DNA from: a virus
Lineage: Duplodnaviria > Heunggongvirae > Uroviricota > Caudoviricetes
Virus record (IMG/VR): IMGVR_UViG_2645727673_000004
Direction: 5' to 3' (one strand)
DNA: 5,217 bases
In this document: in pieces, positions 964 to 5,178 of the stretch
Layout: each line of letters begins with the position of its first letter
How positions within the stretch are numbered: position 1 is the first letter of the stretch
Made by a program: the position numbers and the translations under genes
Notes under the pieces: model-generated
Databases searched by the model: none
What the model was told of the DNA's origin: nothing
The model's input: the letters and a program-made list of their open reading frames with translations, nothing else

Positions 964-1257
964 ATGAAAAAAATGTTGTTTTCTGCCGCTCTGGCAATGC
1001 TTATTACAGGATGTGCTCAACAGACGTTTACTGTTGGAAACAAACCGACAGCAGTAACACCAAAGGAAACCATCACCCATCATTTCTTCGTTTCGGGAAT
1101 TGGACAGGAGAAAACTGTTGATGCAGCCAAAATTTGTGGCGGCGCAGAAAATGTTGTTAAAACAGAAACCCAGCAAACATTCGTAAATGGATTTCTCGGT
1201 TTTATTACTTTAGGCATTTATACTCCACTGGAAGCGCGTGTGTATTGCTCACAATAA
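964..1257 (+). CDS. bor: Bor outer-membrane lipoprotein (lambda bor family, serum-resistance lysogenic-conversion protein)
   Basis: Translation MKKMLFSAALAMLITGCAQQTFTVGNKPTAVTPKETITHHFFVSGIGQEKTVDAAKICGGAENVVKTETQQTFVNGFLGFITLGIYTPLEARVYCSQ (97 aa) matches lambda Bor nearly residue for residue as I recall it. Lipobox is LITGC. It is convergent with Rz, as in lambda. The ORF-track start at 916 adds 16 non-homologous residues; ATG 964 chosen. Confidence 0.9.
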   Translation: MKKMLFSAALAMLITGCAQQTFTVGNKPTAVTPKETITHHFFVSGIGQEKTVDAAKICGGAENVVKTETQQTFVNGFLGFITLGIYTPLEARVYCSQ

Positions 1258-1288: not shown

Positions 1289-1750
1289 CTATCTGCACTG
1301 CTCATTAATATACTTCTGGGTTCCTTCCAGTTGTTTTTGCATTGTGATCAGCCTCTCTCTGAGGGTGAAATAATCCCGTTCAGCGGTGTCTGCCAGTCGG
1401 GGGCTGGTTGCATTATCCACGCCGGAGGCGGTGGTGGCTTCACGCACTGACTGACAGACTGCTTTGATGTGCAACCGACGACGACCAGCGGCAACATCAG
1501 CGCGCAGAGTTTCATTTTCAGCTTTCGCATTGGCTAATTCTCTCGAGTACTTTGCATCGAGTGCAGCAACATCACGCTGACGCTGCTGCATGTCAGCGAT
1601 AGTGGCGATCGCCTGCTTCAGCTCACTGACTTTTTTATCACGCTGTTCTTTGTAGGCGATGGCGTTATCACGGTAATGATTGACCGCCCACGACAGGCAG
1701 ACGATGATGCAGATAACCAAAGCATAAATAATCGCGGCGACTCTGCTCAC
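1289..1750 (-). CDS. Rz: Rz i-spanin (inner-membrane spanin subunit)
   Basis: Translation [39 protein letters not shown]...[62 protein letters not shown] is near-identical to lambda Rz. I place the start at GTG 1748-1750, which overlaps the R stop (GTGA) and has GGGGGA 7 nt upstream; this gives 153 aa as in lambda. The ORF-track start at 1765 is a TTG with no SD. Confidence 0.85.
1348..1530 (-). CDS. Rz1: Rz1 o-spanin (outer-membrane lipoprotein), fully embedded in Rz in the +1 frame
   Basis: 60-aa [63 protein letters not shown] has lipobox LVVVGC and a proline-rich stretch, and is near-identical to lambda Rz1. It lies entirely inside Rz. Confidence 0.85.
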
Positions 1751-2280
1751 TGCTCTATCCCCCAACAGGCTAATGCGCTTTCCTGGTCACGACGAATAAC
1801 CTGTCCATAGCAGTTATTTGAACGTATGCGGCAATCGCGCCCACCATCTTTTATCCACCAGCGAATCGCCTCGCATGCGCCCTTACGATCACCGGCATTC
1901 AGCCGCTTATAAAACGTCGACGGGAAACACTTACCGGGGCCAATGTTATAGGGACAGAATGACGCTATACCCGCTTTTTGTGGTTCGGTCAGTAGTACTT
2001 TAATATTGCGCTCCACCCATGCCAGCGCCTTATCACGCTCAATGGCGTTGACCTGGTCGCATTTTTCCTTCGACAGTTTCATACCGGGAAAAACGGGTTT
2101 TCCATCCACCATCGTGGCACCCCGACAGATGGTCCAGATGCCGGACCCATCGCGGTATGCCGTTGTGTGGTTACCTTCTTTTTCATCCAGAAACTGGTCG
2201 AGAATATCAGGCGCGGGCGCACCGACGGCAATCAGTGCCAGAACGGCAGCCGACAGGCCGTATCTGATTTTTGCGTTCAT
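1747..2280 (-). CDS. R: Endolysin, glycoside hydrolase family 24 (T4-lysozyme-like) with N-terminal SAR/signal-anchor segment
   Basis: 177-aa ORF with ATG start. N-terminal weakly hydrophobic Gly/Ala-rich segment [18 protein letters not shown] is followed by the catalytic E-x8-D-x5-T pattern ([16 protein letters not shown]). It matches the endolysins of Stx/lambdoid phages that I recall, and its stop overlaps the Rz start. Confidence 0.9.
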
Positions 2281-2343
2281 GGATATTTATCAGGATTTAT
2301 CGGTTTCTGCCCACGGACAGGTTTATCTGTTCCGGTCAGTGAC

Positions 2344-2694
2344 TTAAGGTTGTGATTCCGGAGGAGTCTTCAGAGAACCAGTAATTCTTCCCGGTAGCTT
2401 TCCTTTGTAGGTTATCCATACATTCTGCGCCTCTAAAATTACGGGGCGCTTTTCCGGCGACTGCTCATCCCCTTCACATAACCCGGCAGCAACATCCAGG
2501 AAGACCTGTCTGATACTCATTCTGGCTGCTGCCTCATAAAACTCCAGCGCGGCACCTTCAACACGGTCCAGCGAGATGTCCAGGTCAAAAATTTCACCGT
2601 CAAAGCGTTTTTTGTCCCGTAACGCTAAAGTTACCGTAACTTTATTCTCAAAATTGCGGATCCCTTTCACAATCAGTTCATAGTTTTGAGTCAT
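2344..2694 (-). CDS. DUF1327-family protein (YdfR-like) located between holin and endolysin
   Basis: 116-aa ORF MTQNYELIVKGIRNFENKVTVTLALRDKKRFDGEIFDLDISLDRVEGAALEFYEAAARMSIRQVFLDVAAG... resembles E. coli Qin-prophage YdfR, which lies between essQ and rrrQ (from memory). ATG at 2694 has GGGGAGAG upstream and sits 4 nt after the holin stop. Confidence 0.7.
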   Translation of the reverse strand: MTQNYELIVKGIRNFENKVTVTLALRDKKRFDGEIFDLDISLDRVEGAALEFYEAAARMSIRQVFLDVAAGLCEGDEQSPEKRPVILEAQNVWITYKGKLPGRITGSLKTPPESQP

Positions 2695-2698
2695 TGAA

Positions 2699-2914
2699 TT
2701 ACTCTCCCCGTGCCGCCTTACGACGGTCCTCTCTGATTTTGAAATACAGGTTAGTCAGATATGTCAGCAGCCCAAACAGCAGACTCCCCAGCACGCCTAT
2801 TGCCGCCCACTGAGACGGGGAAACCCTGTCCAGCAACTGCAGGAACCAGTAGCCCGTTCCCACCGCTGACGTGGTGTATGACACACCTGTTGTGATTTTT
2901 TCCATCTGGTCCAT
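2699..2914 (-). CDS. S: Class II holin / pinholin of the phage 21 S family, with dual-start motif (antiholin from Met1, holin from Met4)
   Basis: Translation [71 protein letters not shown] (71 aa) closely matches S21 as I recall it. Two in-frame ATGs at 2912-2914 and 2903-2905 give the classic dual start, with GGGAGA upstream. The ORF-track N-terminal extension to 3019 begins at GTG and contains a terminator, so it is rejected. Confidence 0.85.
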
Positions 2915-2946
2915 ACCCCGTCTCCCGTTATCCGGAAGCTGACAAC

Positions 2947-2978
2947 AATAAAAAAGCCACCAGTTAACTACTGATGGC
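2947..2978 (-). terminator. Rho-independent terminator on the late strand, immediately upstream of the holin
   Basis: Minus-strand RNA GCCAUCAG-UAGUUAA-CUGGUGGC forms an 8-bp stem with one G-U pair, followed by UUUUUUAUUG. Confidence 0.5.
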
Positions 2979-3221
2979 TCTGATAACTCATGCAAGCGTC
3001 TCAGACGATCCACTGACACTACCGGTGAGTTTAACGATACCTTCCATTTGACTGGCTCACTTTTTATGATGATGCCGGTGTATTTATCTCCAGCACCAGA
3101 CTTTCTATCTCAACGCCATACGTTGCATTTTTGGTAATATCCGTCAGCGTCAGTGCATTTAGTCCCACTGCCAGACCGTCTTTTATGGTCTGGAATGCCG
3201 GGCCAGTACGATGACGTAGTA

Positions 3222-3410
3222 TCACTCCGGCTCAGTTGCACCACTGACCACCACATCACCTTCTGCTGCAATCGCCTGCATCAGGGTATAAGGGGTTATG
3301 GCCACCGGACTACCAAACGGCTGCCAGCCCTCTTTCAGTTTATGTGTCAGCTTTTCCGCAAGATCTGACGGCGGCGCCGCCCTGACAACATCATAGTGTT
3401 TAAATGCCAT
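3222..3410 (-). CDS. Small DUF1737-like protein (62 aa)
   Basis: ORF MAFKHYDVVRAAPPSDLAEKLTHKLKEGWQPFGSPVAITPYTLMQAIAAEGDVVVSGATEPE carries the EGWQP-G motif that I associate with DUF1737 small proteins. ATG 3408-3410 is preceded by GGTGGAAAG; an alternative ATG at 3425 (MVERT...) has no SD. Confidence 0.55.
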   Translation of the reverse strand: MAFKHYDVVRAAPPSDLAEKLTHKLKEGWQPFGSPVAITPYTLMQAIAAEGDVVVSGATEPE

Positions 3411-3670
3411 GGTTCTTTCCACCATCTGAAAAATAATTCTTTAAAATACCAGACATGTAACACAGAAAAAACACAAAACCATACCTTAAATAGAAACCTG
3501 ATCATCAAGCAGATATGCATGGATAAACTACAAGACGAGATATAAACCACCCTGCATTTAAATAAACAATAAACAACATCAGAAAAATAATTCTGCTCTA
3601 TGGTTTATATTCAAAAATATCATTTATACTTTTCAGAACATCACCAGCAAGGCATAAACAAGGAAGCTAA

Positions 3671-4006
3671 ATGAAGTGGATTGTAATTGATACAGTTATC
3701 CAGCCATCATGCGGAATATCTTTTTCAGTCATATGGAGTAAAGTAAAATTAATAATCTGGTATCAATCGGATGCTTTCTTACCTCCTGAAAGTATATTTA
3801 CACTGACTCACACAGGTATCATGCTCAATAACAAAGTGCTACCTGTAACCATTTACAACGTAGTACCATTCAATAAAACATTCTGGAATTTAATCAAAAA
3901 CAGCCAGGAATGCCCTACAAATACAGATAACGTATTGAATGAATGCTTTAATAACCGTTGCATTCTGCAAATATGTCCTTATGGACTAAAACAACAAAGT
4001 CCATAA
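3671..4006 (+). CDS. Hypothetical protein, AT-rich orphan ORF (111 aa) opposite to the late operon
   Basis: ATG at 3671 is preceded by AAGGAAG (3660-3666). A 111-codon open frame in strongly AT-rich sequence is unlikely by chance because stop codons are AT-rich. Protein is [111 protein letters not shown]; no family recognised. Confidence 0.45.
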
Positions 4007-4027
4007 GGAGTTTACTCACATCTGACA

Positions 4028-4062
4028 AAATCAATATAAACAGCCCCTCCGGAGAGGGGCTG
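4028..4062 (-). terminator. Rho-independent terminator on the late strand (3' end of repeat unit R1)
   Basis: Perfect 9-bp GC-rich stem CAGCCCCUC-(4-nt loop)-GAGGGGCUG at 4041-4062, followed on the minus strand by UUUAUAUUGAUUUUGUC. There is no U-tract on the plus side. Confidence 0.6.
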
Positions 4063-4276
4063 GAGAGTGGCGCTATGTGCCATTGCATGGTGCCGGGTGC
4101 CTCCCGGTGAATTCAGTACCAGCACCTGAATCCGCGATTATCCCATATACCTACTCGCTGATTACCCCTCCGCACAGGGGGATTCACCATGCGAAATTTT
4201 TTAACAAACTTCCCGCCGGCCAGACAATAATCGCCAGCCTGAATTATGAGCAACGTGGCATTTTACGGGAAAACTG
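4041..4276. repeat. Repeat unit R1 of a diverged ~240-bp direct repeat (paralog of 4505-4746)
   Basis: Aligns with 4505-4746 along its whole length with several indels, roughly three-quarters identical by eye. Shared blocks include the 20-mer AGCCCCTCCGGAGAGGGGCT, GCATGGTGCC-GG-GCCTCCCGGT-AATTCAG, GGGGGATTCACCATGCG and TTTTTAACAAA...CCAGACAAT. Confidence 0.75.
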
Positions 4277-4283
4277 TTTTCTG

Positions 4284-4310
4284 CAGTAAAAAGGCCCGCC
4301 GGAGCGAGCC
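4284..4310 (-). terminator. Imperfect GC-hairpin terminator on the late strand, upstream boundary of R1
   Basis: GGCCCGC-CGGA-GCGAGCC at 4293-4310 has a 7-bp stem with one mismatch and the same CGGA loop as the repeat hairpins, followed on the minus strand by UUUUUAC. Confidence 0.4.
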
Positions 4311-4496
4311 TGGAAGGATAGCGGTCATGTGATGCCGGTTTCCCGGTAACTCAGCATCGGTATCTGAGTCAACGTTTTCTCTACTGGGTCATTTCCGATA
4401 CGTTCCGCCTTCCGGCAGACTTTCATCACGTCAGAAAATATAGCACCCTGAGTAACAGGACAGTACTCAGAATTCAGGAAACTGTGACACATCCTG

Positions 4497-4524
4497 CACA
4501 GAAAAGCCCCTCCGGAGAGGGGCT
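4497..4524 (-). terminator. Rho-independent terminator on the late strand (3' end of repeat unit R2)
   Basis: Perfect 8-bp stem AGCCCCUC-(4-nt loop)-GAGGGGCU at 4505-4524, followed on the minus strand by UUUUCUGUGC. Confidence 0.55.
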
Positions 4525-4746
4525 GAAGTATAGCCTAATTTCTGTCTGTCGCATGGTGCCAGGGGCCTCCCGGTAAATTCAGCCTGTCTACTGAATTTGC
4601 ATGTTCTCTGGATCATACACTTTGCCAGATGCCCCGCCGCTGAGGGGGATTCACCATGCGATGTAATTTTTAACAAATTCTCCGGCAGCCAGACAATCAT
4701 CAAGCTGTGGAATTGTGAGGTATTTAAAAATTTCAACGGGTAACTG
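4505..4746. repeat. Repeat unit R2 (paralog of 4041-4276)
   Basis: See R1. Same block order and orientation, and the same palindromic 20-mer at its left end. Confidence 0.75.
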
Positions 4747-5039: not shown

Positions 5040-5115
5040 TGGTGGCCCTTGCTGGATTTGAACCAGCGACCTGGCGATTATGAGTCGCTCGCTCTCACCA
5101 CTGAGCTAAAGGGCC
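5040..5115 (-). tRNA. tRNA with CAU anticodon, most similar to tRNA-Ile2 (ileX/ileZ-like, lysidine type); may be annotated tRNA-Met
   Basis: Minus strand GGCCCTTTAGCTCAGTGGTGAGAGCGAGCGACTCATAATCGCCAGGTCGCTGGTTCAAATCCAGCAAGGGCCACCA is 76 nt and folds as a canonical cloverleaf: 7-bp acceptor stem, GCTC/GAGC D-stem, anticodon loop CUCAUAA, T-arm GCTGG-TTCAAAT-CCAGC, encoded CCA. It differs at only a handful of positions from E. coli ileX as I recall it. Confidence 0.9.
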
Positions 5116-5150: not shown

Positions 5151-5178
5151 CAATAAAAAACCCGCTCGGCGGCGGGTT
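5151..5178 (-). terminator. Rho-independent terminator on the late strand upstream of the tRNA (tR'-like)
   Basis: Minus-strand RNA AACCCGC-CGCCGA-GCGGGUU forms a 7-bp stem followed by UUUUAUUG. Its position upstream of the ileZ-like tRNA matches the tR' position in Stx-type phages. Confidence 0.55.

Follow-up and report, generated by a model that had tools for sequence, protein, structure and literature searches.

Three tandem units of the STnc100/EcOnc/PasD type in the late region of a lambdoid prophage

Small RNAs of lambdoid late regions

STnc100 is a gammaproteobacterial sRNA that was first predicted in Salmonella; E. coli O157 EDL933 has 11 copies, and northern blot evidence is available for STnc100_4 (PMC5331693). 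Relatives in the Sakai and EDL933 strains were described as EcOnc04, EcOnc05, EcOnc06, and EcOnc27/sRNA103 (Tree et al. 2014; Gruber and Sperandio 2015). EcOnc05, EcOnc06, and EcOnc27 have been documented by Hfq crosslinking and northern blotting, with EcOnc05 being among the most abundant Hfq-crosslinked unannotated sRNAs and giving a northern band of ~222 nt, and Tree et al. (2014) found such sRNAs downstream of PR', at the moron site, in at least eight Sakai prophages (PMC4104026). Our literature search for targets of EcOnc04, EcOnc05, and EcOnc06 found none. A second group, PasD1 and PasD2 of EPEC E2348/69, was reported from Hfq RIL-seq and northern blotting (Pearl Mizrahi et al. 2021, PMC8550237); the PasD seed, UGUGAG, directly precedes the terminator, and the ends of the RIL-seq chimeras fall within the linker and terminator (PMC8550237). 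A shared ancestor of PasD and STnc100 has been proposed (for PasD, see also the preprint of Zhu, Shabalina and Storz 2026).

Other small RNAs of this region resemble the units described below in part. AgvB and AsxR (RF02702, RF02703) occupy the same moron site, bind Hfq, and combine a conserved scaffold with a short variable targeting segment, but they are only 51-60 nt long, have a variable 5' part and a conserved 3' part (the reverse of the units here), and are unrelated in sequence. Lambda 6S RNA, or StxS, is a short PR' transcript that starts at PR' directly after Q and is ended at tR'.

Three units on the late strand

We analysed a 5,217-nucleotide stretch of viral DNA (IMG/VR record IMGVR_UViG_2645727673_000004), here called the window, whose minus (late) strand carries three tandem STnc100/EcOnc/PasD-type units: R1, a middle unit, and R2. 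The original prediction, made from the letters of the sequence, had described R1 and R2 as two diverged copies of a candidate prophage small RNA. All of the sequences and coordinates that it quoted are present in the window, and the two copies are 65% identical over the whole unit, but a third unit with its own terminator (stem 4292-4311), which it did not list, lies between them. Both R1 and R2 match the Rfam model RF02076 (STnc100) over its full length on the minus strand, R1 with 132.5 bits (4032-4220, E = 6e-30) and R2 with 138 bits (4496-4689, E = 2e-31), compared with the curated gathering score of 47 bits; given these E-values, the likeness and structure of R1 and R2 is far above chance. 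A model of the core that we built scores 118 bits for R1 (4085-4192) and 86 bits for R2 (4551-4659). With STnc100, R1 and R2 thus share a full-length match (132-138 bits), the helices, the terminator, and a prophage late-region context, and nothing essential differs. The covariance-model search proposed at the outset therefore bore out the sRNA interpretation, with a family that has already been described.

R1 (4028-4192, minus strand) is an allele of EcOnc05. From the predicted transcription start to the terminator stem it differs by one substitution from EcOnc05 of prophage Sp4 in E. coli O157:H7 Sakai, and the published EcOnc05 northern probe matches window positions 4129-4163 exactly, although the R1 promoter variant and the sequence beyond the R1 terminator are not those of Sp4. 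The predicted transcript runs from a G at 4192 to about 4028-4035 (~160-165 nt), and the interrupted U-tract leaves room for longer forms. It has a predicted folding energy of -69.8 kcal/mol (z = -3.1). A structured core at 4085-4192, defined by the minimum free energy (MFE) fold, the RNAalifold consensus, and pair counts, is closed by a helix, P1, formed by 4185-4192 and 4085-4092, which encloses a CCCCC/GGGGG helix, a variable hairpin, the AUUCAG/CUGAAU helix, and a CCGGG/CCCGG hairpin. The core is followed by a linker at 4063-4084 (RNA AAUGGCACAUAGCGCCACUCUC), a candidate seed whose position matches that of the PasD seed, and by an intrinsic terminator at 4041-4062, a 9 bp stem with 7 G-C pairs and a UCCG loop, then UUUAUAUUGAUUUU.

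R2 (4497-4659, minus strand) has the same organization, with a predicted transcript from a G at 4659 to about 4497 (~163 nt) and a folding energy of -64.9 kcal/mol (z = -3.2). Its terminator stem-loop at 4505-4524 has 8 bp, 6 of them G-C, and its linker at 4525-4550 (RNA GACAGACAGAAAUUAGGCUAUACUUC), again a candidate seed, is related to the EcOnc27/sRNA103 linker ACAGAGAUUAGGCAUAUAC. In NC_002695.2 the probe target of EcOnc27 falls outside the Hfq-CRAC peak coordinates published for this RNA, pointing to an offset between assembly versions, and for this reason peak positions were left out when assigning the Hfq-binding part. Upstream of the R2 -35 element, the R1/R2 alignment extends through 4700-4746, which is ~60% similar to 4230-4276 and belongs to the duplicated DNA unit.

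The middle unit (4285-4432, minus strand) is more diverged, with a core at 4327-4431, a linker at 4312-4326, a terminator stem at 4292-4311, and a U-tract to about 4285. Its match to RF02076 (4285-4460) reaches 30 bits (E = 9e-4), below the gathering score of 47, and a family model built without it gives a full-length but weak match at 4327-4431 (13.9 bits, E = 0.039); the 53 bits that it scored with our first core model are circular, as the middle unit was in the seed. The terminator is 74% identical to that of R1 and regularly spaced, and in the RNAalifold alignment P1 persists with two of its pairs replaced on both sides, one by G-C for A-U and the other by A-U for G-C. P1 is not formed in the MFE fold of the middle unit; a 90%-similar variant present in other arrays has a perfect 8 bp P1 and keeps the candidate promoter. 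From synteny, the shared terminator, the retained helices, and the alignment, the middle unit is probably a diverged STnc100 relative rather than a certified member.

The window units are relatives of PasD, though distinct from it. The two have the same gene order (Q, DUF3927, sRNA, holin), begin with GCAUGGUGAAUCC at the 5' end, and are alike in closing helix and predicted promoter layout; PasD1 in E2348/69 lies directly after DUF3927 and before the holin, as do the units here. However, the CCGGG/CCCGG hairpin is missing from PasD, whose linker (with the seed UGUGAG) and terminator are also different and which scores only 38-41 bits against RF02076. A search of the window with the PasD northern probe, allowing up to 4 mismatches, gave no match. 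PasD copies are also reported to be dispersed, whereas the window units are in tandem.

The locus is placed by an identical, annotated prophage in E. coli M217 (NZ_AP019189.1), in which the gene order is Q antiterminator, tRNA-Ile, DUF3927, these units, an iraM-like gene, DUF1737, holin, lysozyme, and Rz. The array thus occupies the moron site of a lambdoid prophage, with Q/PR' on one side and the lysis genes on the other, and the holin, lysozyme, Rz, and Rz1 open reading frames (ORFs) of the window agree with this lysis-cassette context. The units are arranged head-to-tail and converge on the iraM-like gene; in Sakai, by contrast, the EcOnc RNAs and an antisense sRNA (AsxR, AgvB, EcOnc08) are described as facing each other in convergent pairs. 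An Rfam search of the window up to E = 1 gave no match to RF02702 or RF02703, the AgvB and AsxR families. The exact triple is carried by about 650 complete E. coli genomes. Tandem arrays are also seen elsewhere, with nine triples, two doubles, and one quadruple among 102 sites. In hundreds of E. coli genomes, RefSeq/PGAP leaves these sRNA genes unannotated or places them under a spurious partial 'hypothetical protein'.

A terminator scan of the window returned 10 terminator-like sites compared with 1.6 expected from shuffles. Three of these are minus-strand stem-loops with T-rich tails, one per unit, and the stems at 4041-4062 and 4505-4524 are among the scanner-positive sites. Terminators were thus correctly located in the original prediction, but calling them strong was generous, as R1 and R2 have short or interrupted U-tracts (UUUAUAUUGA, UUUUCUGUGC); such tracts are not ideal for binding the Hfq proximal face. 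A further terminator at 5159-5178 follows Q and is the likely counterpart of the 6S/StxS terminator. Like 6S/StxS, the STnc100 units would give short, terminated late-region RNAs of a lambdoid phage that are read through in the presence of Q, but they lie 500-1100 nt further downstream than the 5159-5178 terminator and have putative promoters of their own.

Conserved helices and putative promoters

Folded independently as single sequences, R1 and R2 adopt the same architecture, in which P1 sequesters the 5' end. The long-range inverted repeats noted in the original prediction, GCATGGTG (4085-4092) with CACCATGC (4185-4192) in R1 and CGCATGGTG (4550-4558) with CACCATGCG (4652-4660) in R2, correspond to this helix, which is a consensus helix of the family with compensatory changes. 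Likewise, the internal stem that had been seen to survive with unrelated loops, ATTCAG-TACCAGCAC-CTGAAT from 4111 in R1 and AAATTCAG-CCTGTCTA-CTGAATTT from 4575 in R2, is a compensated consensus helix of the family.

Among 36 distinct family members, 97.4% of cells pair, whereas sliding the partners lowers this to 41-55%. Of the 24 pairs, 15 change on both sides; these double changes cover 56 cells, as opposed to 8-14 after sliding, a level reached in none of 500 shuffles. This large alignment was fitted to a covariance model, which favours pairing. Changes on both sides are seen for 10 of the 24 pairs in an alignment made with MAFFT only. The compensated pairs include all seven in the AUUCAG helix and four of the six in P1. 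The homologs were all fished with two exact anchors, so that variation inside the anchors is censored, and the alignment is centred on E. coli phages because a contig scan with CATGGTGAATCCNCC (14 specified bases, 596 Gb) gave only chance matches in unrelated phyla, which were set aside. Within this range, the paired positions compensate without uncompensated drift, as conservation at the RNA level would have it.

The core is the best-conserved part of the family, and the loop and junction sequences GAAUCC and ACCGGGAGGCACCCGG are nearly invariant. Comparison of 66 distinct units reveals a modular family, in which the conserved 5' structured core is joined to swappable 3' linker/terminator cassettes: 13 tail types are found on nine core types, and a single core type, C1, occurs with seven different tails.

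A scan with a generic sigma-70 consensus found no minus-strand promoter here. The original prediction had singled out TTGTCT as the best -35 candidate, and comparison across the family indeed identifies this hexamer as the conserved -35 of a putative promoter; what was taken for a poor -10 is better read as an extended -10, TGnTAAAAA. For R1, the promoter (4198-4227, minus strand) is predicted to comprise TTGTCT at 4227-4222, an 18-nt spacer, TGnTAAAAA at 4206-4198, and then 5 nt to a +1 at 4192, a reading of the sequence that agrees with PasD1 homology and family conservation. The putative R2 promoter (4667-4696, minus strand), read from the sequence and from family conservation, has the same spacing between TTGTCT (4696-4691) and TGnTAAAAA (4675-4667), with 7 nt to a +1 at 4659. 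Of 31 distinct upstream variants, 29 keep a TTGTTAAAA-type element 6-8 nt from the +1, in most cases together with a TTGNNT -35 at 17-nt spacing, and it is this comparative evidence that supports TTGNNT-N17/18-(TG)nTAAAAA, 5-8 nt from the +1, as a promoter. For the middle unit, the candidate is an extended -10, TGCTATATT (4437-4445, minus strand), with no good -35 and a predicted +1 at about 4429-4432; TGCTATATT is identical in the 90%-similar variant despite different flanks.

The estimated 5' end of PasD1 (NC_011601 1060260) falls, by our reading within about 1 nt, at the start of GCAUGGUG, downstream of TTGACT-N18-TAAAAA. In view of this end and of the conserved -35 and -10 elements, positions 1-29 of the RF02076 model appear to be promoter DNA rather than RNA. 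The predicted R1 and R2 length of ~163 nt is shorter than the northern sizes of relatives (177-247 nt), and some 5' or 3' ends may therefore differ from those predicted.

Proposed function of the array and competing explanations

The explanation that we favour, and in which we have considerable confidence, is that the array consists of three tandem, independently transcribed sRNA genes of the STnc100/EcOnc/PasD type on the late strand at the lambdoid moron site. Each gene would have a sigma-70-type promoter (TTGTCT-N18-TGnTAAAAA for R1 and R2, TGCTATATT for the middle unit), and transcription would start at the first base of the closing helix, in which GCAUGGUG pairs with CACCAUGC, so tying the 5' end into a ~108-nt core with three or four hairpins; a short single-stranded linker and the intrinsic terminator would follow. 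In a lysogen each RNA would be made alone, ending at its own terminator. Discrete transcripts and Hfq binding have been shown by others for close relatives, and by analogy the RNAs of the window, R2 and the middle unit included, would associate with Hfq and use the variable linker adjoining the terminator to base-pair with mRNAs (or other sRNAs). As the linkers of the three copies differ, the array may combine three specificities with a single conserved scaffold. In the lytic cycle, Q-modified polymerase coming from PR' would pass all three terminators and continue into the lysis genes.

Protein-coding explanations fare poorly. Searches of all overlapping ORFs against Pfam and NCBIfam, a six-frame test of openness and phase, and inspection of the mini-ORF from the +3 AUG were all negative. 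That a protein-coding gene was duplicated and decayed into these units is hardly credible. PGAP does place a partial 'hypothetical protein' pseudo-CDS over R1 (window 4078-4203, plus strand), a 399-nt hypothetical ORF lies antisense to PasD1 (E2348C_RS28255 overlaps PasD1), and 28 of 38 distinct cores, mostly near-identical C1 variants, leave one antisense frame open. However, none of the overlapping ORFs matches Pfam or NCBIfam, and the substitutions within helices are compensatory. The 17-mer GGGGGATTCACCATGCG, found at 4177 and 4644, lies at offsets 1 and 2 (mod 3) in the ORFs 4077-4289 and 4597-4743, so that, as the original prediction had pointed out, its frames differ between R1 and R2; moreover, the relative phase of the two most conserved motifs takes all three values (22, 9, and 7 cores), and therefore no frame can be conserved. 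The check for a degraded protein gene thus yielded neither a family nor a conserved frame. Dual-function RNAs that also encode a tiny peptide from the +3 AUG (MVNPP...) are very improbable too. This AUG is invariant, and some EDL933 STnc100 copies have high ribosome coverage, with RCV values up to 3.2, but other copies have values of 0.04-0.24 (PMC5331693). The ORF varies from 5 to more than 61 codons, with sequences that are unrelated between members beyond residue 9, and the AUG lies inside P1 and lacks a Shine-Dalgarno sequence; the first nine codons are conserved because P1 and P2 are formed there.

A third proposal dispenses with a function in trans, the units being stacked terminator or insulator modules that block read-through from PR' (or from the moron) into the lysis genes in a lysogen, with short RNAs as by-products. 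In lambda, only Q-modified polymerase gets past such terminators, and three terminator-like hairpins that follow one another immediately before the lysis cassette on the late strand, together with the extra terminator at 5159-5178 after Q, speak for such insulation. A terminator needs ~30 nt, however, yet a 108-nt core with four covarying helices and a conserved putative promoter is maintained upstream of each; the terminator U-tracts are weak, and the relatives are abundant Hfq-bound RNAs with many RIL-seq partners. We regard a role purely in cis as improbable, and an insulating role may well coexist with a function in trans.

The remaining alternative has the same identity for the units and differs in mechanism alone. 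Here the core rather than the linker would be the business end: it would bind or act as a decoy for a protein (ProQ, RNase E, or some other factor, for instance) or else form a cap that stabilises the RNA autonomously, and the 3' parts would be largely interchangeable terminators. The core is the most conserved part, with GAAUCC and ACCGGGAGGCACCCGG nearly invariant, the tails are freely swapped, the 5' end is sequestered in P1, and the EcOnc05 and EcOnc06 northern probes lie within the core, which must therefore be stably present in the mature RNA. Against this, both the RIL-seq chimeras and the target motif of PasD point to the linker and terminator (PMC8550237), PasD is a functional Hfq partner without the CCGGG hairpin, and Hfq is the sole protein partner reported. 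On balance we consider this mechanism rather unlikely, and prefer base-pairing through the linker.

The modular pattern also suggests, tentatively, a 'plug-and-play' sRNA platform, in which the multi-helix core that buries the 5' end serves as an autonomous stability or protein-binding module, phage recombination adds interchangeable linker/terminator (seed) cassettes and promoters, and arrays of 2-4 copies give several specificities per prophage. Paganini et al. reportedly described HUS-associated variants downstream of stx2a, and relatives lie next to stx2 and have been linked statistically to clinical outcome; if the platform interpretation is true, the HUS-associated variants would act by altering the promoter (extended -10, discriminator) of that phage's STnc100 copy. 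The value of the present findings is in annotation, as the window units belong to one of the most abundant Hfq-bound prophage sRNA families of pathogenic E. coli. Three small additions could guide experiments: the tandem triple has three different linkers, the 5' end of the Rfam model appears to be promoter, and the family follows a modular pattern of core plus cassette.

Two units and a probable third copy in a known RNA family

The whole window was scanned against Rfam 15, and both diverged copies noted in the original prediction, R1 (4041-4276) and R2 (4505-4746), match RF02076 (STnc100) on the minus strand far over the gathering score of 47: R2 with 138 bits (E = 2e-31, 4496-4689) and R1 with 132.5 bits (E = 6e-30, 4032-4220). 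The observation holds, and reading it as prophage small RNAs is correct, yet the family is already described, as Rfam RF02076 and as EcOnc04/05/06/27, and is related to PasD. All of the sequences and coordinates quoted originally are found in the window. The two copies have an overall identity of 65% and share a 17-mer (at 4177 and 4644) that the local ORFs read at different phases. Both have the long-range inverted repeats of 8-9 nt (4085-4092/4185-4192 in R1, 4550-4558/4652-4660 in R2) and the ATTCAG/CTGAAT stems with unrelated loops, starting at 4111 in R1 and 4575 in R2; in the RF02076 consensus, these helices correspond to the closing helix and to one of the internal hairpins. Each unit is closed by a minus-strand terminator-like hairpin (stems at 4041-4062 in R1 and 4505-4524 in R2), and the scan detected 10 terminator-like sites, where shuffles predict 1.6.

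The count of two units was too low, as a third terminator-closed unit is present between them. Its terminator (stem 4292-4311, minus strand) has 74% identity to that of R1 and a regular spacing, and its RF02076 match (4285-4460, 30 bits, E = 9e-4) is sub-threshold; a model built without this unit scores it at 13.9 bits only (E = 0.039). The closing helix is kept and departs from the consensus by two double changes, and the AUUCAG-type and CCGG hairpins are kept as well; the closing helix is not formed in the MFE fold. As a candidate -10 the unit has TGCTATATT, identical in an independent array despite different flanks. In a differently composed triple (L129 among others), a variant of about 90% similarity retains this -10 element, and its 8-bp closing helix is perfect. 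We regard the middle unit as probably a diverged member of the family. Of the tandem arrays among 102 sites, 9 are triples (of two compositions), 2 are doubles, and 1 is a quadruple. The largest array seen, on viral contig L127 (2326-3350, minus strand), has four tandem copies with diverse cores scoring 65-83 bits.

PGAP annotates no RNA gene over the region; what it has there is a partial 'hypothetical protein' on top of R1, at 9078-9203 of L001, the record of the identical E. coli M217 prophage (window 4078-4203, plus strand). RefSeq also has a 132-aa hypothetical protein antisense to PasD1 (3301-3699, minus strand, of the E2348/69 locus record L002). In both cases a conserved sRNA gene has probably been overlaid with a spurious ORF call.

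A covarying core and its alternative explanations

When folded separately, R2 (4659-4497; -64.9 kcal/mol, z = -3.2) and R1 (4192-4030; -69.8 kcal/mol, z = -3.1) adopt the same architecture, with an 8-bp closing helix from nucleotide 1, internal hairpins, a single-stranded linker, and the terminator. Homologs were collected from 120 viral contigs using a two-anchor pattern, giving 66 distinct units, and the distinct cores were aligned to derive an RNAalifold consensus and a covariance model, with which 125 hits (36 distinct) were aligned. Among the 36 distinct sequences, 97.4% of cells pair, compared with 41-55% when partners are slid. The homolog alignment contains compensatory changes at paired positions, with 15 of the 24 pairs changing on both sides (56 cells versus 8-14 when slid, a level reached in 0/500 shuffles), including 7/7 in the AUUCAG helix and 4/6 in the closing helix, in an alignment that is fitted to the model and in which anchors were required to be exact; a MAFFT-only alignment still yields 10 compensated pairs.

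The view that conservation is not at the protein level is borne out. A coding reading of the units is excluded by the lack of both a protein-family match (none of the overlapping ORFs matched a family in Pfam or NCBIfam) and a conserved frame, and the two most conserved motifs occur at all three phases (22, 9, and 7 cores). An AUG at +3 could open a conserved peptide, but the ORFs that it starts range from 5 to more than 61 codons and are unrelated in sequence beyond residue 9, and such a peptide is therefore unlikely. If the units acted purely in cis, as stacked terminators, the 108-nt covarying core and its own predicted promoter would be left unexplained, although the units may additionally insulate the lysis genes. 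Within the small RNA interpretation, the conserved core may do no more than cap and stabilise the RNA, or may itself be an effector.

Predicted promoters and 5' ends

The estimated PasD1 start (NC_011601 1060260) coincides, to within about 1 nt by ruler reading, with the beginning of GCAUGGUGAAUCC, downstream of TTGACT-N18-TAAAAA. The same minus-strand layout is found at R2 (TTGTCT 4696-4691, an 18-nt spacer, TGnTAAAAA 4675-4667, and 7 nt to G 4659) and R1 (TTGTCT 4227-4222, an 18-nt spacer, TGnTAAAAA 4206-4198, and 5 nt to G 4192). Across the family, a TTGTTAAAA-type element is kept 6-8 nt from +1 in 29 of 31 distinct upstream variants, most of which have a TTGNNT hexamer 17 nt upstream of it. 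Judged from these comparisons, the TTGTCT noted originally probably belongs to a conserved promoter, and its supposedly poor -10 is better read as an extended -10; the call rests on comparative evidence because a generic promoter scan does not report it. Positions 1-29 of the RF02076 model align to the conserved -10 element and spacer (window 4660-4689 and 4193-4220), upstream of the mapped PasD 5' end, and are probably promoter DNA.

On the plus strand, a promoter-like site (TTAACA-N16-GACAAT, 9/12 matches) is conserved in both R1 (4201-4228) and R2 (4670-4697) and mirrors the sRNA promoter, its -35 lying over the sRNA -10 and its -10 over the sRNA -35. It may give divergent or antisense transcription.

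Paganini et al. described HUS-predictive variants at +90 and +103 after stx2B. In Sakai Sp5 (record L246, outside the window) these fall at 538 and 551, about -14 and -1 to -4 of the predicted start. They correspond to the extended -10 TG region and the discriminator T-run of the Sp5 STnc100/EcOnc27 copy, which suggests that the variants change its promoter, not the RNA. In a strict count +90 is a G with T's on both sides, so the numbering may be shifted by one.

Published relatives and the prophage late region

The prophage sRNA family STnc100 is known and multi-copy, with 11 transcribed copies in E. coli EDL933, one northern-confirmed (PMC5331693); the Hfq-bound sRNA EcOnc27/sRNA103 overlaps the copy that lies 75 nt downstream of stx2B. 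Tree et al. (2014) reported Hfq-crosslinked sRNAs in at least 8 Sakai prophages, where they map to the moron insertion site 3' of PR', and their northern probes for EcOnc05 and EcOnc06 match the window, exactly at 4129-4163 and with one mismatch respectively. In alignment, R1 differs from the Sakai Sp4 locus by one substitution between the predicted +1 and the terminator stem, which by sequence identifies it as an EcOnc05 allele. A 2026 Storz-lab preprint linked STnc100 to the EPEC sRNAs PasD1 and PasD2, defined through Hfq RIL-seq and northern blots, via common structure and synteny. PasD1 scores only 38-41 bits against RF02076 and, like the window units, lies in E2348/69 directly after a DUF3927 gene and before the holin.

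The units are modular, splitting into 10 promoter, 9 core, and 13 tail types, and core type C1, that of R1, is found joined to any of 7 tails and 6 promoter types. Tail types have counterparts among published RNAs: T5 and T9 are the EcOnc04 and EcOnc27 probe targets, and T2 is the PasD tail. In PasD, the linker and terminator hold both the seed (UGUGAG) and the RIL-seq chimera ends, and by analogy the minus-strand linkers of R1 (4063-4084), the middle unit (4312-4326), and R2 (4525-4550) are candidate seeds. They are completely different from each other; that of R2 resembles the EcOnc27 linker.

Many complete E. coli genomes carry the 801-nt region at 100% identity; it is matched in 2862 of 5426 genomes (656 with coverage of at least 80%), and has 461 records at least 99% identical. 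In strain M217 the late strand reads Q antiterminator, tRNA-Ile, DUF3927, sRNA region, DUF1737, class II holin, YdfR, lysozyme, and Rz, with an iraM-like gene and iss/bor on the opposite strand. In the window the lambdoid lysis cassette (1289-3019, minus strand) is of the ordinary type, with class II holin, YdfR-like, lysozyme, and Rz with embedded Rz1 lipoprotein genes, and a Bor/Iss-type lipoprotein gene (964-1257, plus strand) is opposite. Between Q and the array is a minus-strand tRNA with a CAU anticodon (5043-5115, Rfam 72.5 bits), annotated as tRNA-Ile (ileZ type) in the identical genome; Stx phages have the same placement. The Q gene ends just beyond the window edge, and about 80 nt downstream a minus-strand terminator-like hairpin, AACCCGCCGCCGAGCGGGTT then TTTTATTG (5159-5178), probably represents tR'. 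The right edge of the window may therefore encode a short PR' transcript of the StxS/6S kind.

Convergent on R1 is a 111-aa plus-strand ORF (3671-4006) that matches NCBIfam NF007393, anti-adapter protein IraM (162 bits; cutoff 121), and no Pfam family. A perfect 12-bp inverted repeat, TCCTTATGGACT/AGTCCATAAGGA (hairpin 3976-4009), overlaps the stop codon of this ORF and resembles a terminator for it. An RssB anti-adaptor carried as a late-region moron beside Hfq sRNAs would tie the prophage to RpoS control.
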